The notes under the pieces were generated by a model, which worked only from the letters and a program-made list of their open reading frames with translations, did no database searches and was not told where the DNA came from. This document shows, in pieces, positions 125-14,289 of a stretch of 56,781 bases of DNA. This stretch comes from Candidatus Kaiserbacteria bacterium RIFOXYD1_FULL_47_14 (lineage in GTDB: Bacteria; Patescibacteriota; Minisyncoccia; Phycocordibacterales; Phycocordibacteraceae). How positions within the stretch are numbered: the first letter of the stretch is position 1; the number at the start of each line of letters is the position of its first letter. A program made the translations under genes and the position numbers. The stretch lies in the NCBI GenBank assembly GCA_001781915.1, contig MFMU01000003.1:1188-57968 (forward strand), read 5' to 3'.

Positions 125-176
125 GCATAGACATTTACCTGCATTCATACCGCTGATTTTACCACAAACCGGTATT
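125..176. repeat. ~52-bp motif, copy A (shared with 5055..5109)
   Basis: gcataga...tcataccgctgatttta(c/t)cac... has a 17-nt identical core (tcataccgctgatttta) with 5055..5109. It lies next to an HExxH gene in both loci. Confidence 0.6.
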
Positions 177-843
177 AATAATCCTTTGGGCTAGTGAGGT
201 CGTTGAACGCGTCGTATGTTGGTTCAAATCCGTATACCTCTTTGAACAAATCATCAAACTTACCCTTTGTCATGTTTCCACTGGTTTCTTTAATTTTTTG
301 TAGAAGCTCAAGAATTTTCTCCTTGCCGAAGGCGTCGATGAGGACTTTTATTGCAAAAGCGGATTCATCATAAACTTCGGCGCCATCTTTATTGAAAAAC
401 TCAAGGAAGGAAGAAAAGGATTTTGGTTTCTCTTTAAACTGAATATCTCCAGAGACATAACCACTTAACCCTTCATTCAGCCATATGGGAGTACGCACGC
501 CATTTGTACTCGAGTTGAAGAATAGATGACAAAGTTCATGTGCGAGAAGTGCATTATATTCATCGATGGAATATTCCCTCGCAGATTCTGTCTTCATCTT
601 TTCCCTTGAAAGAAGAAATACTTTGCGGCGATCAGACCATCCAACTACCCACGGTTCAGTTTTTTCATTTCGCAGACAATCTATCGTTGTGCGATCTTCA
701 ACAACAAAAACAGAAGGAAGATTATGAATCCAACCGATATTAAAGAAGTTATTGAGTCGCTCCATTGCCGCTTTATATGATTCTTCCAACTCACCTTCAA
801 TTAGCTTGAGAGTTAAGTTAAATAGGTAGGACATAAAATACAT
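175..843 (-). CDS. HExxH zinc-metallopeptidase-like protein (candidate leader peptidase)
   Basis: 222-aa ORF with LAHELCHLFF followed by WLNEGLSGY (gluzincin-like HExxH...E). No signal peptide. TGATATAAT extended -10 just upstream (minus strand, ~850-860). Confidence 0.6.
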   Translation of the reverse strand: MYFMSYLFNLTLKLIEGELEESYKAAMERLNNFFNIGWIHNLPSVFVVEDRTTIDCLRNEKTEPWVVGWSDRRKVFLLSREKMKTESAREYSIDEYNALLAHELCHLFFNSSTNGVRTPIWLNEGLSGYVSGDIQFKEKPKSFSSFLEFFNKDGAEVYDESAFAIKVLIDAFGKEKILELLQKIKETSGNMTKGKFDDLFKEVYGFEPTYDAFNDLTSPKDY

Positions 844-871
844 AAGACATTATATCAAGATTTATAAAAAA

Positions 872-903
872 AGCCCGATGATTAAGATAATAATCACCGG
901 GCT
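872..903 (-). terminator. intrinsic terminator after precursor peptide 1
   Basis: Minus strand AGCCCGGTGATTA-ttatct-TAATCATCGGGCT (13-bp stem, one mismatch) followed by TTTTTTTAT. Confidence 0.6.
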
Positions 904-919
904 CGCACAACAGTCATCT

Positions 920-1084
920 TTAGGTGCTATGACAATGACAGTTGCAACTCGTACCGTCGCAGTTTTGGCACGATTCGCAGTCGCATTGGTCACTCACCAT
1001 GTTTCTATCCTGGTCATGGTAGTGTAGCGACAGGAAACCGTTGCCGGAACCTGACTTCTTTACAGGTGCTTTGTTAGGATCCAA
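920..1084 (-). CDS. Cys-rich RiPP precursor candidate 1 (54 aa from TTG; ORF track gives 920..1117)
   Basis: C-terminus CDCESCQNCDGTSCNCHCHST. AAGGAGGTGA lies 5 nt upstream of TTG(1084), inside the last codons of the rSAM gene. The leader motif NGFLSL matches DGFVSF of peptide 2. Confidence 0.6.
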   Translation of the reverse strand: MDPNKAPVKKSGSGNGFLSLHYHDQDRNMVSDQCDCESCQNCDGTSCNCHCHST

Positions 1085-2429
1085 TTTCTTCACCTCCTTC
1101 CTCCTGTGTGATGGCACCGCCCCTCTTGATTAGAGCCGTGCAGAATCCTTCAACATCCTCAATACCACTCCAATCTATCCTTGGATCATGTGGAACATAT
1201 GTGCATTCCTGATGGAATTGCTCAAGAACACTCAGTCCGGCATGATCAAGGAAGAAACTACCGATACGACCGTTGGTTTCAAGAACAGTGACCGATGCCC
1301 CAAAAGATTCTTTCCGTATCCGATATTTCCTCAACCTGAAGCGATTTCCGTTTCTTTCCTCGCTCAATGGTTTTGTTTGGCTCACTTTCATTTTATGAAT
1401 TCTCATTGCTGCCTCAACACCACCTGCCGTCATGTAAGGATCGGCAGCAGAAAGATCGCCATCGGAATGCATTTTTGATTCCATTCGACAGCCGCCACCG
1501 CACATACTTACCATTTTACAGCTACTGCAAAACTGCGGTACATAGGCGGTGCGTCTCCAATCATCCATGCGTTGCCACACATCGATGATGCTCTCAACTA
1601 AGAGATTTCCATACTGGATATCAAGATGAGAACATGGGCGAACATCTCCGCCACTAGATATTGTACAGGTTGTTACCCCAGCTGGACACCGACGAGATTC
1701 CAGGTCTGAAGCGCCGTCTACGCTCGCCAATGTGCACAATGGATACGGTTCCAGATGCCCACACTTTAGACCAGTTTCTTTGCTCACTGCAACCAATTCA
1801 GTCATGTACTGAATGAACTGCTTTTTAGTGAGAGACATATCAGAAAAGTCAGAGCAATTACCGGGACACCCTACCTTCGTCGCATTGAAGCTTTTCATTC
1901 CGAGAGAAACAACGAGCATAGCAGTGTCCTTGATAACATTCAGATTCATCTGCGATACGACCATGTTTGCGGAAACTCGAATTCCCGCATCTTGCGCAAT
2001 CCCAATACCTGCGAGTGTTCTTTTGAATGCCCCTTTTCGCTGAGCGATAGCATCGTGAACCTCAGCGTTTGGGCCCATCACAGATGTCAGCACACTGTTG
2101 ATGCCGAGATTCTTCAAGGTCATTGCCTTCTGCTTGGTGAGTGTTACAAGATTTGAATTGAGATACGGTTTTATCCCCGACTCATTCGCAAGCTCCAGAC
2201 ACGCAACAAGCACATTGAAGTTTAATAACGGTTCACCACCAGTGAATGTTATTTCGTGAACACCCGCATCTGCAATCATGTGCATGATTTTCCGTCCGTT
2301 TGCCAATGTGAGTGGCACTTCTGTTTTTGATGAAGCGCGCCAGTAGTTGTAACAATGCAGACATTTGTTATTGCATGCAGTTGTCACCTCAAGCTGGCAA
2401 TTAAGCGGTCCTGATAGCGTTCTGTACAT
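1074..2429 (-). CDS. radical SAM/SPASM-domain peptide-modifying enzyme, copy 1
   Basis: N-terminal CNNKCLHC (CxxxCxxC). C-terminal SPASM-type cysteines (CPAGVTTC, RPCSHL, CSSCKMVSMCGGGC). ~100-aa C-terminal extension. Confidence 0.9.
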   Translation of the reverse strand: MYRTLSGPLNCQLEVTTACNNKCLHCYNYWRASSKTEVPLTLANGRKIMHMIADAGVHEITFTGGEPLLNFNVLVACLELANESGIKPYLNSNLVTLTKQKAMTLKNLGINSVLTSVMGPNAEVHDAIAQRKGAFKRTLAGIGIAQDAGIRVSANMVVSQMNLNVIKDTAMLVVSLGMKSFNATKVGCPGNCSDFSDMSLTKKQFIQYMTELVAVSKETGLKCGHLEPYPLCTLASVDGASDLESRRCPAGVTTCTISSGGDVRPCSHLDIQYGNLLVESIIDVWQRMDDWRRTAYVPQFCSSCKMVSMCGGGCRMESKMHSDGDLSAADPYMTAGGVEAAMRIHKMKVSQTKPLSEERNGNRFRLRKYRIRKESFGASVTVLETNGRIGSFFLDHAGLSVLEQFHQECTYVPHDPRIDWSGIEDVEGFCTALIKRGGAITQEEGGEEIGS

Positions 2430-2593
2430 TTCACACCATCCTTTCTATTAGACATTAAAAGATCAAGATATTCGACTCCGAATACCGCCCGTGTGCACTA
2501 TGGCACATCGATGCGAAAAACGCAAATATTTATATCAAAATATATTTCTTTGTTTTGCGTGGATAGGAGTCAAAAAAATAGAAATTATAAAAA

Positions 2594-2615
2594 GCGCCAC
2601 CCTTTCGAGTAGCGC
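2594..2615 (-). terminator. terminator retained from the truncated membrane-protein paralog
   Basis: Minus strand GCGCTAC-tcgaaagg-GTGGCGC + TTTTTAT. The sequence is identical at 7734..7755. Confidence 0.5.
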
Positions 2616-2616
2616 T

Positions 2617-2705
2617 TTATTTCATCAACCAAACCGCCCATTTGTATCCTTGAAACCCAGCCCAGTAAATCCCTAGCCAAACTACTATGCTTATTAGGAC
2701 GGACA
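2617..2705 (-). pseudogene. 3' remnant of a paralog of membrane protein 7757..8284, truncated by IS insertion
   Basis: Nucleotide homology to 7757..7844 (encoding ...WLGIYWAGFQGYKWAVW.MK*) stops abruptly at 2705, where the IS3 terminal TGGACCCC begins. Confidence 0.6.
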
Positions 2706-2763: not shown

Positions 2764-3018
2764 ATGAAAAAGCACCGTACCGCTCCCGATGTGAAGGAGC
2801 AGATTATCAACCGCATTAAAAACGATGGCATTTCTGTTGTTGATGCAGCCAAGGACCATGGCATCTCCGAGAACACCATCTATGGCTGGATTGCCAAGAA
2901 GACCGATGGACAGCCGACTCTCTCAGAGATCATCAAACTGAAGCGAGAGAACGCACAGTTGTTTCAGTTGGTCGGCGAGATGACGCTCAAGCTGTCTGAC
3001 ACCCAAAAAAAGAAGTGA
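2764..3018 (+). CDS. IS3-family transposase OrfA (HTH + leucine-zipper-like)
   Basis: 84 aa. HTH segment ISVVDAAKDHGISENTIYGW. Ends at the slippery run. Confidence 0.85.
   Translation: MKKHRTAPDVKEQIINRIKNDGISVVDAAKDHGISENTIYGWIAKKTDGQPTLSEIIKLKRENAQLFQLVGEMTLKLSDTQKKK
3006..3012 (+). promoter_or_regulatory. programmed -1 frameshift heptamer A AAA AAG
   Basis: A_AAA_AAG lies in the orfA frame immediately before the orfA stop, and orfB is open in the -1 frame. This is the canonical IS3 arrangement. Confidence 0.6.
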
Positions 3019-3839
3019 GAGAAGAAACGGCTGTCACCAAAACACTCCTCACCCAAAAGCTCGGTATCTCGCTCCGTTCACTCTGGTACAAACCGAAGAA
3101 GCCAGACAGGGACTGGAAACTCAAATGTCGCATCGAGGAGGTGTTGCGAGAACATCCGTCATACGGATCTCGGAGAATCGCTCTGCATCTGAAAATGAAT
3201 CGGAAGCCGATCAAGCGAGTGATGAACCTGTTCGGCATCAAGGCGTATCGGAGACGAGGCCAGAAGTGGAAGAAAACCAAGAATATCAAGGTGATTTATC
3301 CGAATCTGCTCATGACGGAATGTCCACTGTATGAGAATCACATCTGGGTATCCGACTTCACCCGCCTGCCGTTTCAGGGCAAGGTGGTGTATGTCGCAAC
3401 GGTTGAGGATTTGTTCACTAGAAAGATTGTCGGTCTCTCGGTGTATACCAACCATGCGGTTGGTCTGGTGTTGTCGGCATTCATGAATGCCATTCATGAC
3501 CATGCTCGACCAGTCATCTTCCATTCTGACAACGGCAGTGAATACAATGCCAAGGTATTCATTGAAGCACTCGAGACCGTTGGCGTTATGATCTCTCGCT
3601 CAGCTCCAGGATGCCCGTGGGAGAATGGGTATCAAGAGAGCTTCTATGACAAATTCAAAGTGGATCTTGGTGATCCTGCTAGATTCAAAACGCTCGGCGA
3701 ACTCGTGCTCGCCATCTATCAGACAATCTGGCAGTACAACCACACTAGAATCCACTCGGCATTGAAAATACCGCCTGTGCAATTTGCGCTTCAGGCGGCA
3801 CAGATATATCATTTAGCTAACAAGGAAGGCGTGCAATGA
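3015..3839 (+). CDS. IS3-family transposase OrfB (DDE/rve integrase core)
   Basis: WVSDFT...HSDNGSEY...PWENGYQESF, the typical DDE spacing of rve-type transposases. Confidence 0.85.
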   Translation: MREETAVTKTLLTQKLGISLRSLWYKPKKPDRDWKLKCRIEEVLREHPSYGSRRIALHLKMNRKPIKRVMNLFGIKAYRRRGQKWKKTKNIKVIYPNLLMTECPLYENHIWVSDFTRLPFQGKVVYVATVEDLFTRKIVGLSVYTNHAVGLVLSAFMNAIHDHARPVIFHSDNGSEYNAKVFIEALETVGVMISRSAPGCPWENGYQESFYDKFKVDLGDPARFKTLGELVLAIYQTIWQYNHTRIHSALKIPPVQFALQAAQIYHLANKEGVQ

Positions 3840-3854
3840 AATGGGTCCACGCGC

Positions 3855-4872
3855 ATTCCGTACTCAGTTAGGACACTCGTTAATATGCGATCATGCACAT
3901 CAAAGGAGATCTGACGCGCGCCGAGCGTCTTGAAATCGGCATTTTGTTGTTGGAGAAGGGGTATTCGGGGCGTTCAGTCGCTCGCGCTCTCAATCGCAGC
4001 CCGAACACCATCTCATATGAGATACGGAAGAACAGTACGCTCGGTGCGTATGATCCGCTGAAAGCAGACGCTAAAGCGCGGGTGCGCAAGCACTATCGAA
4101 AATTAGAGTGGTCCAAAATTGAAGCTGATCCAGATCTGAAAAAGTTTGTGGTCAGAAAGCTCAAGAAACACTGGAATCCTGACGAGATAGCCGGATACCT
4201 GAAGCGCACGAAGGCACCGGCGTATGTATCTAAAACTGCCATATACATCTGGTTGTGCACTTCACGCGTGGAAAGATACTGCGAACTCTTGTATTCAAAA
4301 CGAAAACGAGTGAAGAAACAAAAACCAAAAATTAAGAAGACCTTAATCCCAAACCGCATTGGTATTGCAGAGCGTTTCGCAGGTGCCGACAACCGTACGA
4401 GAGGCGGACACTGGGAACGAGATACCATCACCGGGCGCAGAGGAACGACTTGCGGACTTGCCACGGCACAAGAAAGAAAGAGCCGCCTTGTTGTGGCATG
4501 CAAGGTGGAGAGTATGCGATCGATCGAACATCTGGCGGCAGACCGAACGATGTTCGAGGATATGAAAACGCTCTCGGTATCGCGTGACAATGGTATTGAG
4601 AATCGAGAACACGAAGCGCTTGGTATTCCGTCTTTCTTCTGCGATCCATACTCGTCCTGGCAGAAAGGCGGCATCGAAAATGCGAACAAGATGTTGCGTC
4701 GGTACTTCCCGAAAGGCACTGACTTCAGCGAAGTGTCGCAAGGCGAAGTTGATCGGGCTGTTCGCTTGATTAACGAAAAGCCGAGGAGAATCCTCGGCTA
4801 TCGTTCCTCGCTTGCAGAAGCAATGCGATTGGATATTATTAAAAAATCGAGTGTCCTAATTCTGGGGTGAAT
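3855..4872 (+). mobile_element. IS30-family insertion sequence (borders approximate)
   Basis: Perfect 12-bp IR core TTAGGACACTCG (3868..3879) / CGAGTGTCCTAA (4848..4859), with weaker flanking matches. It lies only ~5 bp from the IS3 right end. Confidence 0.7.
3893..4870 (+). CDS. IS30-family transposase
   Basis: N-terminal HTH (RAERLEIGILLEKGYSGRSVARALNRSPNTISYEIRKN). DDE core (WERDTI...SRDNGIEN...SWQKGGIENANKMLRRYFPKG). Confidence 0.85.
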   Translation: MHIKGDLTRAERLEIGILLLEKGYSGRSVARALNRSPNTISYEIRKNSTLGAYDPLKADAKARVRKHYRKLEWSKIEADPDLKKFVVRKLKKHWNPDEIAGYLKRTKAPAYVSKTAIYIWLCTSRVERYCELLYSKRKRVKKQKPKIKKTLIPNRIGIAERFAGADNRTRGGHWERDTITGRRGTTCGLATAQERKSRLVVACKVESMRSIEHLAADRTMFEDMKTLSVSRDNGIENREHEALGIPSFFCDPYSSWQKGGIENANKMLRRYFPKGTDFSEVSQGEVDRAVRLINEKPRRILGYRSSLAEAMRLDIIKKSSVLILG

Positions 4873-5054
4873 TTAGCATTCTTCCGAAGAAGATATCGTA
4901 CTGTATGTGCATGGAAATGCAAGGCGTTGTTGAGTTAACAATATTCAAGAGTGATTACTTCGCCACTCCCTCAATGGCTTTTGGATAATAAATTCATCGG
5001 AAAAAAGGTCAACATTATGAATCGGGCTTGGTTTTACAGAAGCTAAAACTGTGA

Positions 5055-5109
5055 GCATAGATAGTTCCCTACTCTCATACCGCTGATTTTATCACAGAAA
5101 CTGGTGATT
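5055..5109. repeat. ~52-bp motif, copy B (shared with 125..176)
   Basis: Same core tcataccgctgatttta as 125..176. Sits 27 nt upstream of the HExxH gene 5136..6020. Confidence 0.6.
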
Positions 5110-5135
5110 GTGTTATAGTAAGAGACACGGAAGTT

Positions 5136-6020
5136 ATGTATATACCTGATATAAATCTAAAAATTGACTTGGACAAAGAGAGCGATATGTTCGTGAAATT
5201 TCTACACCACGAGAAATTTACGCAGAATAGAGATTCTATTTTACATTGCTATCCCGACTTAAGAATATTGCTAGAAACAGACAATACTGACGAGAGTAAA
5301 ACTATTCGCGCATTTCTTGAAAAAAAATACTCTGAATATAATACCGTTATAAAATCAATAATATCCGATTCCGAAGAAAAGATAGACAAATATGGGAAAA
5401 TTATTTTGGAACAATTATCTTCACTAATGGATTATACTTGGCCGAAGGAACATTCTGGATATTTAGTTATACCTACTATTCTTCCATTTTCCCCGTTTAA
5501 TGAAAACACTCTATATTTTTCAATGGCGAGAAAAATCAAAATGAGCGACAAAAAAGAAGATTTGAATCATGGATTCTTGCCTGTTCTTGCTCACGAAATT
5601 TCCCATTTTATGTTAAGGGATATTTTGGAGCAGGACGGAAAAATAAAATACAGTGATTATGGGTGGACTACTAAACATTTTTTACAGGAAATCCTAGCCC
5701 CTATTCTGATGAACCAAAAGCCACTCAAGAAGATTCTTGACATTGAAGATTATCTAGGGAATCCATATCTAAAACACTTGAATGTTGAAAAGGATTCTGT
5801 TTCAGAAAATATCGTCAATCATTATAATAGGATGTATGCATCCATGAAGTATGACGGCAAAAGATCGTTTGCAGAAATCATAAAAATAATAGCAGGTGAA
5901 TTAGAGAGTGTCAGCACCACGCTAGATGAGAAATTTAAGATGTGGAATACCTATGGGCACAATATTTCCTCAAATGACCTTCTTCTTCAAAAATACAAAA
6001 CTCCTATTCCTATAAAGTAA
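5136..6020 (+). CDS. HExxH-motif protein 2 (putative metallopeptidase)
   Basis: 294-aa AT-rich ORF with LPVLAHEISHFML. Converges on precursor 2. No other family recognised. Confidence 0.5.
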   Translation: MYIPDINLKIDLDKESDMFVKFLHHEKFTQNRDSILHCYPDLRILLETDNTDESKTIRAFLEKKYSEYNTVIKSIISDSEEKIDKYGKIILEQLSSLMDYTWPKEHSGYLVIPTILPFSPFNENTLYFSMARKIKMSDKKEDLNHGFLPVLAHEISHFMLRDILEQDGKIKYSDYGWTTKHFLQEILAPILMNQKPLKKILDIEDYLGNPYLKHLNVEKDSVSENIVNHYNRMYASMKYDGKRSFAEIIKIIAGELESVSTTLDEKFKMWNTYGHNISSNDLLLQKYKTPIPIK

Positions 6021-6021
6021 A

Positions 6022-6045
6022 AGCGCCACGATGAATTGTGGCGCT
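6022..6045. terminator. bidirectional terminator between 5136..6020 and precursor 2
   Basis: AGCGCCAC-gatgaatt-GTGGCGCT. T-tract on the minus strand (TTTTACTTTAT). Confidence 0.55.
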
Positions 6046-6063
6046 CGGCGACGGATATGGTAG

Positions 6064-6201
6064 TCAATTGTTATCGCATTCTTCGCAATTGACATTGCAG
6101 TCATGACAACTGTTATCGCATTCTGATGCAGCGACAAAAGTCCCTGTCTGACTCGCTTCCGCCTGTACGAAGGAAACAAAACCATCATTCGATTTTTGCA
6201 T
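6064..6201 (-). CDS. Cys-rich RiPP precursor candidate 2 (45 aa, not in ORF track)
   Basis: My translation: MQKSNDGFVSFVQAEASQTGTFVAASECDNSCHDCNVNCEECDNN*. AAAGGGGGTGAT Shine-Dalgarno lies 4 nt before the ATG. Sits 43 nt downstream of the rSAM-2 stop, with a terminator after it. Confidence 0.65.
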   Translation of the reverse strand: MQKSNDGFVSFVQAEASQTGTFVAASECDNSCHDCNVNCEECDNN

Positions 6202-6244
6202 AATATCACCCCCTTTCTAGAGAAGAAGTTTAGCATGCAGTTCG

Positions 6245-7546
6245 CTATTTCGCAATAGCGATTCCTCGTCGAACAATACCATCGACAAAACTGTCTGAGT
6301 CAATGGTGCCCCATTGAATCCGTTTGTCTCCTGGTGAATATCGAATTCCTACTTCGAGTTGCTTTAAGAGTTCGAAACCAGCATCGTTCAAGAATGCCCG
6401 AGATTTCCCTGCGAGGACTGTAATCCCGAAAGGTTCACGCCGGTAGCGATAAGATTTTATTTCAAAATCTTTTATCGGTTTTTTGCTAGGCATTTTTTCG
6501 CGGTGCTTTTGAAGCGAAGAGAAACTTCTTTCAGCATCTTCGGGCGAGCTGTAAGGATCCGCACTGGAAAGATCTCCATTGCGCATTTTCGCTTCCATAC
6601 GACAACCACCGCCACACACTTGTGAAAGTGTACAACTCTTACAGATTACTGGTAGAAAAGCTCCATTTCTCCAAGTTTCCATGCGAACCCAGATCTTTTT
6701 CAGGTCTTCCATGAACAAGTTCCCGTATGACTCATCGAGATGAGAACAGGGTCTGACTTCACCGTCACTGGCGATAGTCATCGTGGTCACACCGGCATAG
6801 CATCTCCTGCCAATAAACGAATAGTGATAATCCAGATCACCAATTCCACACAGCGGATATCCCTCAAGGGCATCAATTGCAAGATCGAATTCTTCACCGC
6901 TTTCTCGTAAATCTCGTAGATATTGCCGGAATTCACTTTTGGACAGAGAAAATTGTGAAAAATCGGAGCAATTTCCTGGACATCCAGCCTTAGTGGCTGA
7001 AAACATCTTTACGCCAATAGAGGATACAATTCTTGCTGTTTCCTTGATATTGGAAAGATTCATTTTCGAAACCACCATATTAACTGCGACGCGAATTCCT
7101 TCCTCCTGAGCTATCTGACTGTTTTCCACGACTTTCTTGAATGATCCTTTTGATTGAGCAATCTTGTCGTGTATCTCCGGCAAGGAACCCATTAATGAAG
7201 TCAGGATTTGTTTTACCCCTAGGGAACGCAGTTCACGAGCACGAGTTCTGGTTAATAGAACCAGATTTGAGTTCAGGGAGACACCCAAATTCGCATTTTG
7301 TGCCTCCTTGAGGCAATGGAGTAGAGCATCGTACTTTATCAATGGTTCGCCACCAGTGATTATGATGTCGAACACCTTTGCATCAGCCATCTTCTCTACA
7401 ATTTCGCTAACAGTGGATTTATTGAGGGAAGTGTTGACTCGCTTGAGATCCTTTCGCCAAAAATTGTAACAGTGAGAACAATTATGGTTACAGGAAGTCG
7501 TGAGTTCTACTTGATAGTTTATTGGCGCCGAAAGCGTTTGATACAT
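6245..7546 (-). CDS. radical SAM/SPASM-domain peptide-modifying enzyme, copy 2
   Basis: CNHNCSHC (CxxxCxxC). SPASM cysteines (CYAGVTTM..RPCSHL..CKSCTLSQVCGGGC). Roughly half the residues are identical to copy 1 by eye. Confidence 0.9.
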   Translation of the reverse strand: MYQTLSAPINYQVELTTSCNHNCSHCYNFWRKDLKRVNTSLNKSTVSEIVEKMADAKVFDIIITGGEPLIKYDALLHCLKEAQNANLGVSLNSNLVLLTRTRARELRSLGVKQILTSLMGSLPEIHDKIAQSKGSFKKVVENSQIAQEEGIRVAVNMVVSKMNLSNIKETARIVSSIGVKMFSATKAGCPGNCSDFSQFSLSKSEFRQYLRDLRESGEEFDLAIDALEGYPLCGIGDLDYHYSFIGRRCYAGVTTMTIASDGEVRPCSHLDESYGNLFMEDLKKIWVRMETWRNGAFLPVICKSCTLSQVCGGGCRMEAKMRNGDLSSADPYSSPEDAERSFSSLQKHREKMPSKKPIKDFEIKSYRYRREPFGITVLAGKSRAFLNDAGFELLKQLEVGIRYSPGDKRIQWGTIDSDSFVDGIVRRGIAIAK

Positions 7547-7733
7547 GATACACCTCCTTTCCTATTTGACATTAAAAGATCAAGATATTCGACTTTGAAT
7601 ACCTCCAAGTGGGATTATGGCACATCAATACAAAGAATACAAGTTCTAGCGCAGTACGCCCAACTTGTTTATATCGAAATATATTTCTTCGTTTTGCGCG
7701 GATAGGAATCCCAAAAAATAGAAATTATAAAAA

Positions 7734-7755
7734 GCGCCACCCTTTCGAGTAGCGC
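7734..7755 (-). terminator. intrinsic terminator of 7757..8284
   Basis: Same hairpin plus T-tract as 2594..2615. Confidence 0.5.
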
Positions 7756-7756
7756 T

Positions 7757-8284
7757 TTATTTCATCATCCAAACCGCCCATTTATATCCCTGGAACCCAG
7801 CCCAGTAAATCCCGAGCCAAACTACCATGCTTATCAGGACTGACGGCAAGGTAATCCGGAGGAATGTTACCAGGTATCCTTCTTCTTTCTTACGAATGAG
7901 CAGTGTTACATAATCCGGATCGATGTAGAACCAGCTACCAATCCAGAAGATGAGTCGCTTGCTCATAAGAATTCGCCGTACCAACCGCTTGAACCACTGA
8001 TTTTTCAGAAGCACTGCATGTTCAAGTTGGCGGAATCCTTCTATTCCAATTGGATCCCACCCTTTCTTGATAGCTATATCATTACCAAGAACGACGAGGA
8101 TACAAGCGGCCAGATAGATTGGTGTAACAATGACAAACGCTTTTGTAATGCCATTGATTCCATGTTCTGGGTCCATTGTCAAGAACCAGATAATGAGAGC
8201 ATCGACAAAACGAGTCAAAATAGTAATAACTCTCTCCGAAAGAATGGCGTGTAGGAGAGAGGTGCTCGGCGCACGCTTTTCCAC
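7757..8284 (-). CDS. multi-pass membrane protein, unknown family
   Basis: 175 aa with several hydrophobic segments (ITILTRFVDALIIWFL, FVIVTPIYLAACILVVL, VLISMVVWLGIYWAGF). Lies upstream of rSAM-2 on the same strand. Confidence 0.6.
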   Translation of the reverse strand: MEKRAPSTSLLHAILSERVITILTRFVDALIIWFLTMDPEHGINGITKAFVIVTPIYLAACILVVLGNDIAIKKGWDPIGIEGFRQLEHAVLLKNQWFKRLVRRILMSKRLIFWIGSWFYIDPDYVTLLIRKKEEGYLVTFLRITLPSVLISMVVWLGIYWAGFQGYKWAVWMMK

Positions 8285-8417: not shown

Positions 8418-9506
8418 CTAATTACTGGCCCAAATGAAGGAATTTTTCTCTCCGAAGCTCGGTACGAGTACATCGTTTCTGTTGAAGTTCCCGAATATTT
8501 TTTTGAACTTATTCTCGATTATTTTCGCGGCGTCTATATATTTCGGGATTACGGCAGCAGCTCCTGCCTGCGCACTTATCCACCCATTCGGTTTTAATAT
8601 CTCCTTTGACAATCTGAAAATCTCTTCATAAAACTCGCCCATCTTGTTTTTAGCTCCTCGACTACCCATCGGATTATCGGTCAAATCGGAAATAATCCCA
8701 TCCACCTTTTCTCCATTTTTATTTGCATACATCTTTAGATAATTCATAGCATCTCCTATATTGAGAGTTACATTTGGATGAGAGAATACTTTTTGATTTA
8801 GATATTTTTTTGCGAAAAATACTACCTCGGCATCGAGATCAATTATGGTGATTTTCAAATCTGGATTTATTTTCAGCGCCATTTCTGCCACATATCCATC
8901 TCCCCCGCCGAGTATGATGATATTTCTGTCTGTTGGTTTGAGCGGAGCTAGAATTGCTTTGTCATATCGTTCATGATCAAATTCGGAAGTTTGTACTAAT
9001 CCGTCTATAACCAAGCTTTTCCCGAACTTCTTTAGGTCTGCGACAACAATATCTTGAAAAGCAGAATGTATCTCTGCCAATTTTTTTATGACTCTAGTTC
9101 GACTCGTCTCCCCTGTTCTATATATAGGGGATTCTAGATACTCTAGAATATTATATCCGCGTTTAATTTTCTGAATTTGCTTTTTTGTGGACTCAACCGC
9201 TTTCACCAGAAAGTCAGCAGCTTTAAGTGTATTCTCATCATCTGAACAACTGAAAACATCGCAAGCGACATAATTATATTCAGGCCAACTATGAATTGAT
9301 ATGTGAGAAGTTGAAAGAAGTAAAAATCCTGTTATGCCCTGCGGTTTAAATTCATGGAAATGAGTGTGGAGTATCTCCATACTGGCGGCTTGAGCCGCTC
9401 CGATTAAAGTATCATTCCAAAACTTTTTTGAGTTTATCTGATGAGGATCGCAACCTGACAAATCAATTAAAATATGCAATCCTTTTGTCTTTCTTAAATG
9501 ACTCAT
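8418..9506 (-). CDS. fusion of S-adenosylmethionine decarboxylase (SpeH/SpeD-type, pyruvoyl) and spermidine synthase (SpeE-like)
   Basis: N-terminal HEFKPQGITGFLLLSTSHISIHSWPE..CDVFSC matches the small bacterial AdoMetDC processing region. C-terminal IILGGGDGYVAEMALK, IIDLDAEVV and ISDLTD match the aminopropyltransferase fold. Confidence 0.8.
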   Translation of the reverse strand: MSHLRKTKGLHILIDLSGCDPHQINSKKFWNDTLIGAAQAASMEILHTHFHEFKPQGITGFLLLSTSHISIHSWPEYNYVACDVFSCSDDENTLKAADFLVKAVESTKKQIQKIKRGYNILEYLESPIYRTGETSRTRVIKKLAEIHSAFQDIVVADLKKFGKSLVIDGLVQTSEFDHERYDKAILAPLKPTDRNIIILGGGDGYVAEMALKINPDLKITIIDLDAEVVFFAKKYLNQKVFSHPNVTLNIGDAMNYLKMYANKNGEKVDGIISDLTDNPMGSRGAKNKMGEFYEEIFRLSKEILKPNGWISAQAGAAAVIPKYIDAAKIIENKFKKIFGNFNRNDVLVPSFGEKNSFIWASN

Positions 9507-11550: not shown

Positions 11551-11625
11551 CGCGGTCGATGGGATTTGAACCCACGTTCTTCGCCGTGACAGGGCGACGC
11601 TTTTGACCAGCTAAGCTACGACCGC
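11551..11625 (-). tRNA. tRNA-Asp (anticodon GTC)
   Basis: GCGGTCGTAGCTTAGCTGGTCAAAAGCGTCGCCCTGTCACGGCGAAGAACGTGGGTTCAAATCCCATCGACCGCG. Anticodon loop C-T-GTC-A-C. No CCA encoded. Confidence 0.9.
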
Positions 11626-12296
11626 ATTTTCGCAAATTCTCTAAATCTCTTCCTCTTCTTTTCAAGAAAAAGACCTTCGGGAACAGGAACCTTATGATTA
11701 TACATAAAATCACCAAGTTTCAAAGAATTATTGACGCTGTAGGTGAGACGATAATAGTTCCCTTTTCCTTTTGAGAGAACTCCTTTGTGTATATTAAACA
11801 TCTCCAATTGTTCTCGTATCGCACTTAAAAATTCATAAGAACATGAGGTGAATACCGTTCGAATGGTGAACAATCTTGATTTTCTATCTTTGTGCACATA
11901 CCCGAGCCAAACATTCCCATCTCCATCAAAATAACCCCTTACAAAATGCGAAAAATACTTTTTTGGAACATGAGGAATTACAAGACTCTTCGTTTTATTG
12001 GGCGTAAATCCTAAGTGGAGAAGATCATTGCACATTTCTTTGCTTCCTATTTGCAAACGATACATTGTTTGTTCATTTATTTTTCTTCTGCTCCTCACAC
12101 TTATTTTGTGCTCGGACTGGATAGCTTTTTTGATTCCTTCAAGAATATTTTTATCCGTTATTTGAATGTTCCAAAAATGGGCGCCTCTTTTATTGAGAGT
12201 CATATACCCATCTGCTGCAAAAAATCCAAGAATATAGGCCATTTCAGAAGTCCATTTCTTGAAGAAATCTTTATTTATCGCGCGATACATCGGCAT
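11616..12296 (-). CDS. LAGLIDADG homing endonuclease (two-motif, free-standing)
   Basis: Two LAGLIDADG motifs: YILGFFAADGY and FVRGYFDGDGNV. Its last 10 nt overlap the 5' end of tRNA-Asp. Confidence 0.85.
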   Translation of the reverse strand: MPMYRAINKDFFKKWTSEMAYILGFFAADGYMTLNKRGAHFWNIQITDKNILEGIKKAIQSEHKISVRSRRKINEQTMYRLQIGSKEMCNDLLHLGFTPNKTKSLVIPHVPKKYFSHFVRGYFDGDGNVWLGYVHKDRKSRLFTIRTVFTSCSYEFLSAIREQLEMFNIHKGVLSKGKGNYYRLTYSVNNSLKLGDFMYNHKVPVPEGLFLEKKRKRFREFAKMRS

Positions 12297-12372: not shown

Positions 12373-12446
12373 TGCTGGCGGAAGGACTTGCACCTTCGAC
12401 CTTGGGTTTATGAGTCCCATGCTCTAACTACCTGAGCTACGCCAGC
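12373..12446 (-). tRNA. tRNA with CAT anticodon (Met, or Ile2 if lysidinylated); atypical T-loop
   Basis: GCTGGCGTAGCTCAGGTAGTTAGAGCATGGGACTCATAAACCCAAGGTCGAAGGTGCAAGTCCTTCCGCCAGCA. G1-C72, so it is not an initiator. The T-loop reads TGCAAGT (G at position 55). Confidence 0.75.
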
Positions 12447-12504: not shown

Positions 12505-14289
12505 CTAATTCGTGCGAATAAATCCGCCTGCCTGAATCTCCCAGAGTTTCTTATAGAGATTGCTCTCGTGCGCGAGCAGTTCCTCGTGCGTACCCGAGAG
12601 AACGACCGAACCCTTCTCCATCACAATGAGTCGGTCCATATGCATCACCGTCGAGAGACGGTGTGCAATAGCGATGACCGTCTTCCCTTCCATAAGTCGC
12701 GCGAGCGATTCCTGGATGAATTGTTCAGATTCAGAATCAAGCGAGGAGGTCGCTTCGTCCAAGACGAGTATCGGTGCATCTTTTAGAATGGCGCGCGCAA
12801 TCGCCACCCTCTGGCGTTCGCCACCCGAGAGCTTCACTCCGCGTTCGCCGACCATTGTAGAGAATCCCTCTGGATACTTACTGATGAATTCATAGCAGTG
12901 CGCCTGTTTCGCCGCTTCGATAACTTCTTCATCAGTCGCATCGTTCTTGCCGTAACGGATATTATCGAGGAGCGAACGATGGAAGAGCATCGGCTCTTGC
13001 GAGACGAATGCAATCGAAGCACGCAAGCTCTCCTGGGTTACTTGAGCGATATTCTGACCGTCAATCGTAATGGCGCCTCCAGTAACATCATAAAGACGGA
13101 GCAAGAGCTTCGCTATGGTCGTCTTTCCTGCTCCTGAAGAGCCGATGAGCGCCACTTTCTCGTGCGGTGCGACCGCGAGCGTGAAGTTATTGAGAACTGC
13201 TTGGCTGTCGTGATATTCGAATCGTACATTCTCGAAAATAATCGCGCCTTCGGTTACGCGAAGTTTTTTTGCATCTGGCGCGTCTTGAATCGCCTGCGGT
13301 AATTCGAGAATATCGAGCATCTCGGTCGCATCGGCAAAGGCGTCATAGAGCTGGCGCATATTACGGCCGATGCCCCAAATGCGGTCCATAAGGCCGAGAA
13401 TATAGACCTGAATAAGCACGAAATCACCAACCGTCACGAGACCGCGTTGCCAGAGCAGTACCGCGCCAGCGAGAAGCGCCAGTTCTATACCAAGAGCAAA
13501 AAGCCCTTGTACGCCATAGATCCATATTTCAACATCCCATACGCGCCGCGTTGCATCGTACCAACGAGTGATTGTTTCTTTAAATCGAGAATTCTCATAT
13601 TGAACGGCAGCGAAGGTGGTTATCGCTGAATGATTCAGCACGGTATCAGAAAGATATCCGGTTACATTGCTGTCTTCTTCGGTACGCGTTGCGCGCAATG
13701 GCTGAAGCGCATGCATCATCCTGAATTGCAGATAGACAAACGCCACCGTCCATACGAGAAGTCCTGCACCGAGCAGTATGCTGCGCGTCGACAAAACGCC
13801 GATAATACCGATGGCGAAGAGGAATGCTGAAAAGAAATTGAAAAGAATGTTATCAAACACCTGTTCAAAGGAGCGCGCGTAGCGCGTCACACGGCGCGTG
13901 AGCGTGCCGGTAAAATTGGAAATGAAAAATTCGTGTGCGTGGCCGAGCAGATAGGTAAAAGCATTCTGATACAGATCAGTCATCACTCTTGATTCAAGCC
14001 GAAGCACGCCGAACATCATGACTCGACGGCCAATCCAAGCCACGAAATGTATCACCGCATACATCGCGAGAACAAAAAAGAGCGCCTGCACGACAACAGA
14101 AGTTGGCGTGCCTCCCGAAAGAATATTGATGAACTGACGCAAGTAGAGCGGCGAAATAACTCCCGCCACTTCAATAAGTATTCCTGCGGCAATTGAACTG
14201 CCCAAGAGCCATGGATACGCGAAAGCCGCCGTGCCATACGCACGGAGCACCGGTAACACCCGCGTTGGTTTCTTCTGAATCGGAGGCAT
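12505..14289 (-). CDS. ABC transporter, fused permease/ATPase (MsbA-like exporter)
   Basis: Six-TM N-terminal half. Walker A GSSGAGKTT, signature LSGGERQR, Walker B ILVLDEATS. Confidence 0.9.
   Translation of the reverse strand: MPPIQKKPTRVLPVLRAYGTAAFAYPWLLGSSIAAGILIEVAGVISPLYLRQFINILSGGTPTSVVVQALFFVLAMYAVIHFVAWIGRRVMMFGVLRLESRVMTDLYQNAFTYLLGHAHEFFISNFTGTLTRRVTRYARSFEQVFDNILFNFFSAFLFAIGIIGVLSTRSILLGAGLLVWTVAFVYLQFRMMHALQPLRATRTEEDSNVTGYLSDTVLNHSAITTFAAVQYENSRFKETITRWYDATRRVWDVEIWIYGVQGLFALGIELALLAGAVLLWQRGLVTVGDFVLIQVYILGLMDRIWGIGRNMRQLYDAFADATEMLDILELPQAIQDAPDAKKLRVTEGAIIFENVRFEYHDSQAVLNNFTLAVAPHEKVALIGSSGAGKTTIAKLLLRLYDVTGGAITIDGQNIAQVTQESLRASIAFVSQEPMLFHRSLLDNIRYGKNDATDEEVIEAAKQAHCYEFISKYPEGFSTMVGERGVKLSGGERQRVAIARAILKDAPILVLDEATSSLDSESEQFIQESLARLMEGKTVIAIAHRLSTVMHMDRLIVMEKGSVVLSGTHEELLAHESNLYKKLWEIQAGGFIRTN

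Follow-up and report, generated by a model that had tools for sequence, protein, structure and literature searches.

The stretch of DNA studied here (the window: 56,781 nucleotides of contig MFMU01000003.1, assembly GCA_001781915.1) comes from Candidatus Kaiserbacteria bacterium RIFOXYD1_FULL_47_14, a member of the Parcubacteria within the Candidate Phyla Radiation (CPR), an origin that an initial annotation made from the letters alone had anticipated in calling the genome reduced and CPR-like. The window carries two cassettes on the minus strand, 5 kb apart, in each of which a gene for a radical S-adenosylmethionine (rSAM) enzyme with a SPASM domain is followed by a gene for a small Cys-rich peptide, and a gene for a protein with an HExxH motif lies beside the pair (Table 1; cassette 2 occupies 6064..7546). 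Our results, which come from sequence comparison, strongly support the view that cassette 1 is one of two paralogous cassettes of an unnamed system of rSAM-modified peptides (RiPPs, peptides made by the ribosome and modified after translation), largely restricted to CPR and widespread in Patescibacteria.

Table 1. Positions of the cassette features within the window, with the basis of each assignment.
Feature	Coordinates	Strand	Basis
Peptidase_MA_2-type zinc-protease-like protein, 222 aa, HELCH	175..843	-	37.3 bits with Pfam PF13485 (cut-off 32.4)
Intrinsic-terminator-like hairpin 3' of precursor 1	871..904	-	14-pair stem with 6 GC pairs, T-run
Precursor peptide 1, 54 aa, TTG start	920..1084	-	Sequence, orthologues, codon divergence, family HMM
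Candidate rSAM/SPASM peptide maturase 1, 451 aa	1074..2429	-	Open reading frame, motif, Pfam, homologue alignment
C-terminal domain of enzyme 1, ~90 aa (aa 358-451)	1077..1358	-	Conserved in both paralogues and all homologues; invariant R-x-E-x-F-G
Upstream region of cassette 1	2430..2700	-	3' end of a truncated membrane-protein gene, terminator 2618..2591, promoter/5' untranslated region
Unnamed HExxH protein, 294 aa	5136..6020	+	Convergent with cassette 2; invariant H153-E-I-S-H157 and E185
Terminator-like hairpin 3' of precursor 2	6021..6046	-	Hairpin search
Precursor peptide 2, 45 aa, MQKSNDGFVSFVQAEASQTGTFVAASECDNSCHDCNVNCEECDNN	6064..6201	-	Strong ribosome-binding site AAAGGGGGTGA upstream; family HMM E 6e-14
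Candidate rSAM/SPASM maturase 2 (paralogue), 433 aa	6245..7546	-	46% identical to enzyme 1 over full length; same domain layout

Enzyme 1 begins with MYRTLSGPLNCQLEVTTACNNKCLHCYNYW, which contains the CxxxCxxC motif as C19-N-N-K-C23-L-H-C26. Both enzymes pass the Pfam cut-off for the Radical_SAM superfamily (PF04055; 87.7 bits for enzyme 1 and 81.8 for enzyme 2, cut-off 29.5) and that for SPASM (PF13186; 28.1 and 28.9 bits, cut-off 21.5), and enzyme 1 also exceeds that of Fer4_12. We defined a SPASM domain by PF13186 together with seven Cys for two auxiliary clusters, arranged as C-x9-15-G-x4-C ... C-x2-C-x5-C-x3-C ... C. In an alignment of 28 homologues, C248-x12-G-x4-C266 and C301-x2-C304-x5-C310-x3-C314 are invariant, and the rSAM Cys, C232, a loop G-C-P-G-N-C192-S-D-F and the C-terminal R-x-E-x-F-G are invariant or nearly so. 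Judged by this definition, the enzyme has a SPASM domain with one canonical ligand unaccounted for, and motif, Pfam and invariant columns together confirm the initial description of an rSAM enzyme with a SPASM-type Cys pattern. The AlphaFold2 model of enzyme 1 (predicted local distance difference test, pLDDT, 87) has a core of alternating strands and helices. The NCBI record lists the two enzyme genes with truncated 5' ends, so that their proteins have 401 and 315 aa instead of 451 and 433.

The gene for peptide 1 is tied closely to that of the enzyme. Its ribosome-binding site, AAGGAGGTGA, lies at 1099..1090 within the last codons of the enzyme gene and is followed after a 5-nt spacer by the TTG start at 1084..1082, and the enzyme stop codon (1076..1074) overlaps the start of the peptide frame. 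The listing of open reading frames (ORFs) also offers a 65-aa form starting at GTG 1117; we prefer the TTG start, since ATG occupies the corresponding position at L036, an orthologous locus that is 87% identical. The peptide consists of a leader with the motif NGFLSL and a core, CDCESCQNCDGTSCNCHCHST; its C-terminal end, SDQCDCESCQNCDGTSCNCHCHST (in the reading frame also given as NGFLSLHYHDQDRNMVSDQCDCESCQNCDGTSCNCHCHST), holds seven Cys within 18 residues and closes with a stop at 922..920, beyond which lies the hairpin with its T-run (904..871). The ORF, ribosome-binding site, start, tail and hairpin were each verified, so the sequence statements of the initial annotation, including the intrinsic terminator after the peptide, are all correct. 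Orthologues of peptide 1 at L036, L037, L039 and L038 (whose enzymes are 87%, 76%, 75% and 53% identical to enzyme 1) retain NGFLS[LM] and the Cys pattern. Between the window and L036 the peptide codons show 12 synonymous and nine non-synonymous differences, with an excess at third positions (15 against 8 and 5), and all Cys are kept through TGC/TGT swaps; by this measure, peptide 1 is under purifying selection.

Peptide 2 is typical of the main family; its close relatives are peptides P0145 and P0151 and the one at locus L001. Neither peptide is annotated in the NCBI record of this metagenome-assembled genome. Peptide 1 is also uncalled in all five public copies of the contig that were examined, which come from groundwater metagenomes, and some pipelines call an antisense ORF of 49 aa over it (878..1027, plus strand).

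Probable precursor peptides and HExxH proteins at related loci

When one genome of each GTDB species was scanned, 30 loci with related enzymes emerged, nearly all in CPR (Nomurabacteria, Paceibacterota, Parcubacteria, Woesebacteria, Levyibacteriota, Saccharibacteria, Minisyncoccia and Tyrphobacter). Two of the 30 belong to high-GC bins that bear the label Desulfovibrionaceae. Twenty-seven loci retain the 3' end of the enzyme gene with flanking DNA, and a co-oriented small peptide ORF follows the enzyme in 26 of them (in four, behind an intervening peptidase gene), L016 being the sole evaluable locus without one. The peptides have a leader element in common, G-F-[EVTL]-[ST]-[ILF]-[LVF] (for example GFETILD, GFESLL or GFVSFVQ, and NGFLSL in the enzyme-1 clade), placed about 17-39 residues ahead of the first core Cys, and the commonest core after the spacer is C-[PD]-D-C-Y-D-C-D-x-N-C-E-E-C-D (alignment A2). 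The survey thus bears out the expectation that a small Cys-rich ORF would be conserved beside the enzyme. A conserved leader joined to a variable core reads as the classic signature of a RiPP precursor, and on this evidence the unit has the gene arrangement and the leader-core make-up of a generic RiPP cassette.

A profile search of a database of 5.8 billion proteins recovered 80 called family peptides, all of them hypothetical or unnamed and none with a Pfam domain; at least 17 of the 80 are on contigs equal in length to those of enzyme matches, a figure that serves only as a proxy. Their cores are made up of 28% Cys, 35% Asp and Glu, 10% Asn and 7% Tyr, Lys and Arg being nearly absent, and hold a median of five Cys in 19 residues, the number of Cys ranging from 1 to 8 and the length being hypervariable. 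Asp or Glu follows a Cys 287 times and precedes one 240 times, and Asp, Glu or Asn stands beside nearly every Cys. The cores of both window peptides have no Tyr, Phe or Trp. In variant precursors the leader is kept (as PQFVSILN, PRFESVFN or TGFTDLMD) and everything in the core but the Cys is altered: PPPPC-[VYI]-G repeats occur at L018 (6071..6310), L019 (6071..6355) and L021 (6053..6346), L024 (2746..3027) also holds a variant precursor, L030 has a Gly-rich core, and cores of the form ...PCDKTDVCY are found at L022 (2567..2773) and L026 (~850..998), in the two high-GC bins labelled Desulfovibrionaceae. Either the enzyme family extends beyond CPR or those contigs are mis-binned.

Of 2813 small ORFs from the window and the loci, the profile hidden Markov model (HMM) of the family picks out 25, each encoded on the same strand as an rSAM homologue and immediately downstream of it. 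This adjacency is partly circular for the sequences from which the model was built, while L012, L036 and L039 stand outside the build; peptide 1 itself matches with E 1.5e-6. These data bear on the possibility that the frame of the small ORF of cassette 1 is open by chance, within the 3' untranslated region, as its TTG start, the missing NCBI annotation and the five public copies without a call might suggest. Such a frame would hardly have a strong ribosome-binding site at ideal spacing or conservation across a family, and the ATG of the orthologue, the adjacency of the HMM matches and the synonymous-biased codon divergence with every Cys retained have effectively refuted this reading. Enzyme and peptide are very probably an enzyme-precursor pair.

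The initial annotation had described enzyme and peptide as a two-gene unit. Their coupling holds, but the unit is incomplete, since clustering all ORFs of the loci against one another revealed two families of HExxH neighbours that are conserved with the system. Homologues of the 222-aa protein were found in six of the compared sources (loci L017, L018, L019, L021 and L024, and the window), on the same strand, and the three orthologous loci closest to cassette 1 (L036, L037 and L039) have one too. At L018, L019, L021 and L024 the gene of this type separates the enzyme gene from the precursor gene, stop and start codons overlapping; in the window it has its own TTGATATAAT box after the terminator of cassette 1. 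The 294-aa protein has homologues in 16 compared sources (15 loci and the window), 14 of them encoded convergently directly after the precursor. Its HEISH motif and E185 form a gluzincin-like signature, and it gave no convincing match in Pfam, NCBIfam or PDB. Both HExxH proteins are candidate leader peptidases. Because the two families recur at related loci, we describe the cassette as a three-gene unit with two predicted subtypes, A (enzyme, peptide and convergent 294-aa HExxH protein) and B (enzyme, peptide and MA-type peptidase), of which the window holds one each. Leader, core and partner vary together: the enzyme-1 clade combines the NGFLSL leader with a CxCHCH tail and the MA-type peptidase, and the enzyme-2 clade a GFVSFVQ or GFETIL leader with an NCEECD core and the 294-aa protein.

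Several loci carry, beside the main cassette, a second and shorter rSAM homologue (~340 aa) with a different HExxH protein of ~210 aa (HESLH, HEIIH or HEILH), at L001 (907..2671), L003 (1799..3518), L007 (2180..3937) and L016 (7019..9063); L029 has only the ~210-aa type of HExxH protein (4761..5387), after its one rSAM fragment. This pair, absent from the window, may be a further peptide-maturation module.

Family placement of the enzymes

Searching the same database of 5.8 billion proteins with the enzyme gave more than 300 matches at E <= 1e-20. The best 120, which we inspected, all have E <= 1e-93, are mostly 430-455 aa long and span nearly the full query; where an organism is named, it belongs almost always to Patescibacteria, Paceibacterota or Niyogibacteria. 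The two enzymes matched 80-87 NCBIfam families, of which we compared the best 25 for each enzyme. Among models of peptide maturation, PqqE scored 94-103 bits (cut-off 381), MftC 79-89 (265), StsB 77-82 (625), SkfB (TIGR04403) 75 (300) and PapB (NF047865) 59-73 (340); AlbA reached 73 bits (cut-off 850) with enzyme 1 and was not among the best 25 families for enzyme 2, and the SCIFF maturase was not among the best 25 of either enzyme. Neither peptide 1 nor peptide 2 has a match in NCBIfam or Pfam at E <= 0.01. By these scores the enzymes belong neither to the SCIFF/ranthipeptide maturases nor to the sactipeptide maturases represented by SkfB, AlbA and StsB, and the proposal that the pair is of SCIFF-like, sactipeptide or ranthipeptide type is reduced to a resemblance, no curated maturase model being near its cut-off. 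It had also been considered that the enzyme might group with the anaerobic sulfatase-maturating enzymes (anSME) or another non-RiPP SPASM family. We found neither a cut-off reached nor a robust grouping for NirJ/NirJ2, AhbC/AhbD or anSME.

Among solved structures, the best match of enzyme 1 by sequence is SkfB (phmmer E 3.6e-15), then BlsE (cytosylglucuronate decarboxylase), PqqE, SuiB and CteB; anSME is absent from the PDB matches at E <= 1e-3 and is alike in fold only, on a par with other SPASM enzymes. Foldseek with the AlphaFold2 model ranks SkfB first (E 5e-17, 24% identity), followed by SuiB, anSME, TigE, a viperin-like enzyme, BlsE and ChlB, with PqqE at rank 22; the viperin-like enzyme and BlsE are not SPASM proteins. 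The nearest solved relatives by sequence and fold are the peptide maturases SkfB, SuiB, PqqE, TigE and ChlB, alongside anSME, which agrees with the earlier suggestion of a maturase-type rSAM-SPASM enzyme. Judged by sequence and model, enzyme 1 is a genuine SPASM enzyme, placed near those that modify peptides but outside every named family. As no NCBIfam model is near its cut-off, no family name can be assigned. The cassette as a whole resembles sactipeptide and ranthipeptide systems but, on its sequences, falls outside each family against which it was compared (SCIFF, PapB, SkfB, AlbA, StsB, PqqE, MftC, NirJ and AhbD).

Several of our results weigh against a peptide-maturation system that makes thioethers. 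None of the best 25 NCBIfam families of either enzyme reached its cut-off, and the leading scores belong elsewhere: the top model of enzyme 1 is NirJ2 (140 bits against 500, with 116-140 over the two enzymes), a non-RiPP heme enzyme, as is AhbD (120-128 bits for both enzymes against 500), and the top model of enzyme 2 is the GeoRSP rSAM family (120-126 bits against 400, 126 being the score of enzyme 2). The seventh and most C-terminal canonical SPASM Cys is missing from the alignment of 28 homologues, in which the upstream C192 and C232 are invariant instead. The spacing C-x2-C-x2-C-x3-C, present in 33 of the 80 cores, is also like that of ferredoxin-type motifs for metal binding. At the related loci compared, neither a transporter nor an immunity gene is conserved beside the cassette, the thioether chemistry is proposed by analogy, and a likeness of the C-terminal domain to RiPP recognition elements (RREs) falls below significance in each single test, Pfam PqqD (PF05402) giving no match to the domain and Foldseek E values of 0.08 or more throughout.

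Part of this evidence would fit a small protein that is an unmodified Cys-rich metal-binding or Fe-S peptide, merely co-transcribed with an enzyme acting on another substrate (tetrapyrrole-like or a small molecule): enzyme 1 scores highest on NirJ2, both enzymes score well on AhbD, and those 33 cores have the ferredoxin-like spacing. We consider this very unlikely. On NirJ2 and AhbD the enzymes attain roughly one quarter of the cut-off score, and a conserved leader with a variable Cys region, strict adjacency and co-variation over phylum-level distances would be hard to explain for a bystander. To our knowledge, moreover, CPR genomes generally lack heme biosynthesis.

The conserved C-terminal domain of the enzyme, which the initial annotation had not mentioned, may be the part that recognizes the precursor. 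Modelled alone it gives a pLDDT of 87.7 and four beta-strands followed by helices, and it shows three weak but concordant similarities to RRE proteins. The NCBIfam model of MftB, the mycofactocin RRE chaperone, matches seven of 23 members (best E 3.3e-4, all below the cut-off), the match being confined to model positions 5-32 of 85, around the R-x-E-x-F-G strand. Alignment by hhalign to PqqD, represented by a small alignment from the PDB sequences 5sxy and 3g2b, is colinear over 70 columns with P 0.013, yet has a probability of 3%. The best Foldseek matches by TM-score are McbB of the microcin B17 synthetase McbBCD (TM-score 0.51-0.54, E 0.3-0.9, probability up to 0.8) and, also with non-significant E, SuiB; both carry the leader-binding domains of their systems. 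A profile search of the PDB with the domain gave chance-level matches only. A role in leader recognition is likely, and homology to RREs is unproven, though suggestive. If it holds, the domain would be a C-terminal fusion, whereas the RRE is N-terminal in SkfB, AlbA, CteB, SuiB and PapB.

That the only family-level similarity of this domain is to MftB and PqqD, and that PqqE and MftC are among the scoring models, would also suit a peptide from which a small redox cofactor or metal-binding molecule is made for the cell's own use rather than for secretion, like PQQ (pyrroloquinoline quinone), mycofactocin or a metallophore. The cassette has neither exporter nor immunity gene, cores rich in Cys, Asp and Glu could chelate metals, and the endings ...DVCY or ...CYGG of some variant cores are reminiscent of the mycofactocin precursor with its C-terminal Tyr. 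We nevertheless hold this reading to be quite improbable, for PqqA and MftA have invariant reacting residues, whereas the cores here vary in length, composition and number of Cys; the genome has two divergent copies; and no conserved cofactor-dependent dehydrogenase or other tailoring genes are found nearby.

Predicted chemistry and known systems

We return to the enzyme-precursor pair, for which the mechanism proposed here, thioethers included, is moderately probable as a whole. Enzyme and precursor are translated from one transcript, as the sequence shows by the overlap of the precursor start with the enzyme stop. The leader, with its GF-x-S/T-hydrophobic-hydrophobic element, would be bound by the PqqD/MftB-like C-terminal domain, and the [4Fe-4S] cluster held by C19, C23 and C26 would cleave SAM, giving a 5'-deoxyadenosyl radical that would remove hydrogen from the residue of the acidic core that serves as acceptor. 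A core Cys at a SPASM auxiliary cluster would then form a thioether with the radical carbon, most likely on a side chain of Asp, Glu or Asn (as with PapB and QhpD) or at an alpha-carbon (as with SkfB). Repeated rounds would lead to a compact, multiply bridged and strongly anionic peptide, and the adjacent HExxH protein (the MA-type in cassette 1, the 294-aa type in cassette 2) would cut off its leader. The data show how the genes are arranged and conserved, the superfamily of the enzyme and the division of the precursor into leader and core; leader binding by the C-terminal domain, the thioethers, the role of the peptidase, export and biological function are inferred. Links from Cys to Asp, Glu or Asn seem the most likely by analogy, because Cys is the sole invariant feature of the core, Asp, Glu and Asn flank it, and PapB provides a precedent. 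PapB forms Cys-Asp and Cys-Glu thioethers and tolerates Cys-Xn-Asp with n = 0-6 (PMC9413430), so that it could in principle handle cores of the form C-x-D-C-Y-D-C-D-x-N-C-E-E-C-D.

The same enzyme-substrate pair might instead perform another radical chemistry: C-C or C-O cross-links at the conserved Tyr/Phe or Asp/Asn, epimerisation, Cys oxidation of the formylglycine kind, or a type as yet undescribed. No curated thioether-maturase model is matched; the fold relatives include SuiB (a Lys-Trp C-C cross-link), anSME (oxidation of Cys or Ser) and PqqE (PQQ synthesis); the main core often has an aromatic residue (DC[YFHIV]DC in 75 of the 80 peptides); and it is unusual both to lack the seventh SPASM Cys and to have the invariant CPGNC192SDF loop. 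We think such chemistry rather unlikely, since Cys alone persists through all core variants (acidic, PPPPC, CDKTDVCY and the window peptides), which indicates Cys as the reacting residue, and the best solved relative by sequence, SkfB, forms thioethers. A bolder version of the enzyme-precursor reading, which we would advance only as a doubtful possibility, is that the system is a RiPP class of its own across CPR, with an undescribed modification or the densest knot of thioethers, whose product serves an episymbiotic lifestyle. The C-terminal recognition domain, the SPASM domain without its last Cys, the extra invariant CPGNCSDF loop and the hyper-acidic Cys-rich core could, with equal reserve, be taken as the features of such a class. 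If this were true, the product might serve in attachment to or killing of hosts, capture of metal from the host, or signalling, and would be among very few specialised metabolites conserved across CPR.

Comparison with known systems shows partial likeness in each case. The SCIFF systems of Clostridia (CteB/CteA, Tte1186) likewise have precursors of ~45-55 aa with five to seven Cys near the C-terminus and a single adjacent rSAM/SPASM enzyme, but the match to CteB (PDB 5wgg) is weak (E 7.8e-6) and limited to the N-terminal rSAM part, the taxonomic range differs, and SCIFF cores are rich in Gly, Ser, Thr and Lys where those described here are extremely acidic. SkfB is the best solved match by both sequence and fold and makes a Cys-to-carbon thioether; SkfB and AlbA differ, besides the position of the RRE, in substrates with few and widely spaced Cys. 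Mycofactocin (MftB/MftC) and PQQ (PqqD/PqqE) biosynthesis also combine an rSAM/SPASM enzyme with a PqqD-type module, and the R-x-E-x-F-G strand matches the start of the MftB model, but there the module is a separate protein and the precursor core is invariant, unlike the C-terminal fusion and hypervariable cores here. QhpD, another rSAM/SPASM enzyme, introduces several thioethers from Cys to Asp or Glu into a single small polypeptide, QhpC, which is the chemistry proposed here; QhpC, however, is the gamma-subunit of quinohemoprotein amine dehydrogenase, with a fixed sequence, and dehydrogenase genes are lacking at this locus. QhpD is not among the best 25 NCBIfam families of either enzyme, and no comparison directed at it was made. 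PapB and PapA (freyrasin, Paenibacillus polymyxa) share with our system an rSAM/SPASM enzyme, a short precursor and a core alternating Cys with Asp or Glu; they differ in the leader motif, in a looser Cys spacing, in the N-terminal place of the recognition domain and with respect to the HExxH partner. What is distinctive of the present system is its precursor family, domain order and peptidase partners.

CPR bacteria (Patescibacteria) have minimal genomes and are usually reported to have few or no biosynthetic gene clusters. A study of deadwood, for example, found none in its Patescibacteria genomes (PMC11613949). A SPASM maturase and zincin-type peptidases also occur at some of the graspetide loci predicted in CPR (Makarova et al., 2022; PMC8939145), but those loci are defined by an ATP-grasp ligase and Thr/Ser-Asp/Glu cores. 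The cassette here has no ATP-grasp gene and a different peptide family. In the full-text literature searched, with most subscription journals outside it, these graspetides (PMC8939145) are the sole RiPP-cluster prediction we found for CPR, and we found no published account of the present peptide family; loci of this kind may already be picked up in a generic way by automated tools, antiSMASH for instance. The family is nearly invisible in databases because gene callers routinely miss the peptides. Since the cassette has been kept in many CPR lineages, and has been duplicated and has diverged within a genome of the ~1-Mb class, its function appears to be worth the cost, and could plausibly lie in interaction with hosts or competitors. 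The system is small (~1.5 kb for enzyme and precursor, ~2.3 kb, 175..2429, with the peptidase), which suits heterologous co-expression, and the enzyme could become a compact catalyst for densely cross-linked acidic peptides.

Surroundings of the cassettes

The region upstream of cassette 1 is ~90% identical over ~300 nt to that upstream of cassette 2 (7547..7830), although the enzymes themselves share just 46% identity. The shared stretch comprises a truncated copy of the 3' end of the membrane-protein gene at 7757..8284 and identical terminators (2618..2591 and 7758..7731), which suggests a recent rearrangement or gene conversion of the promoter region associated with insertion sequences. Between the cassettes (2764..4870) lie transposase genes of the IS3 family (2764..3839) and of an IS30-like type (3893..4870). 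As a regulatory RNA, the duplicated 5' regions have no Rfam match, a fold z-score of -1.6 and no counterpart at the orthologous loci; on these grounds we rejected a conserved riboswitch and treat them as a recent intragenomic duplication. A generic scan for sigma-70 promoters found sites no more frequent than in shuffled sequence. A box TTGATATAA[AT]T, resembling an extended -10 element, stands 5' of the MA-type peptidase gene (843..870) and recurs upstream of both rSAM genes (at 2520..2545 for enzyme 1); it may represent a local promoter consensus.

An ABC transporter at 12505..14289 was rejected as the exporter, as it lies 5 kb away and is not conserved at related loci. A LAGLIDADG homing-endonuclease-like ORF (11616..12296, minus strand) lies between the tRNA genes 11551..11625 and 12373..12446, its 3' end overlapping the first of them by 10 nt. 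Just upstream of cassette 2, an ORF of 362 aa (8418..9506, minus strand) fuses S-adenosylmethionine decarboxylase and spermidine-synthase domains, a combination that would provide polyamine synthesis from one polypeptide.

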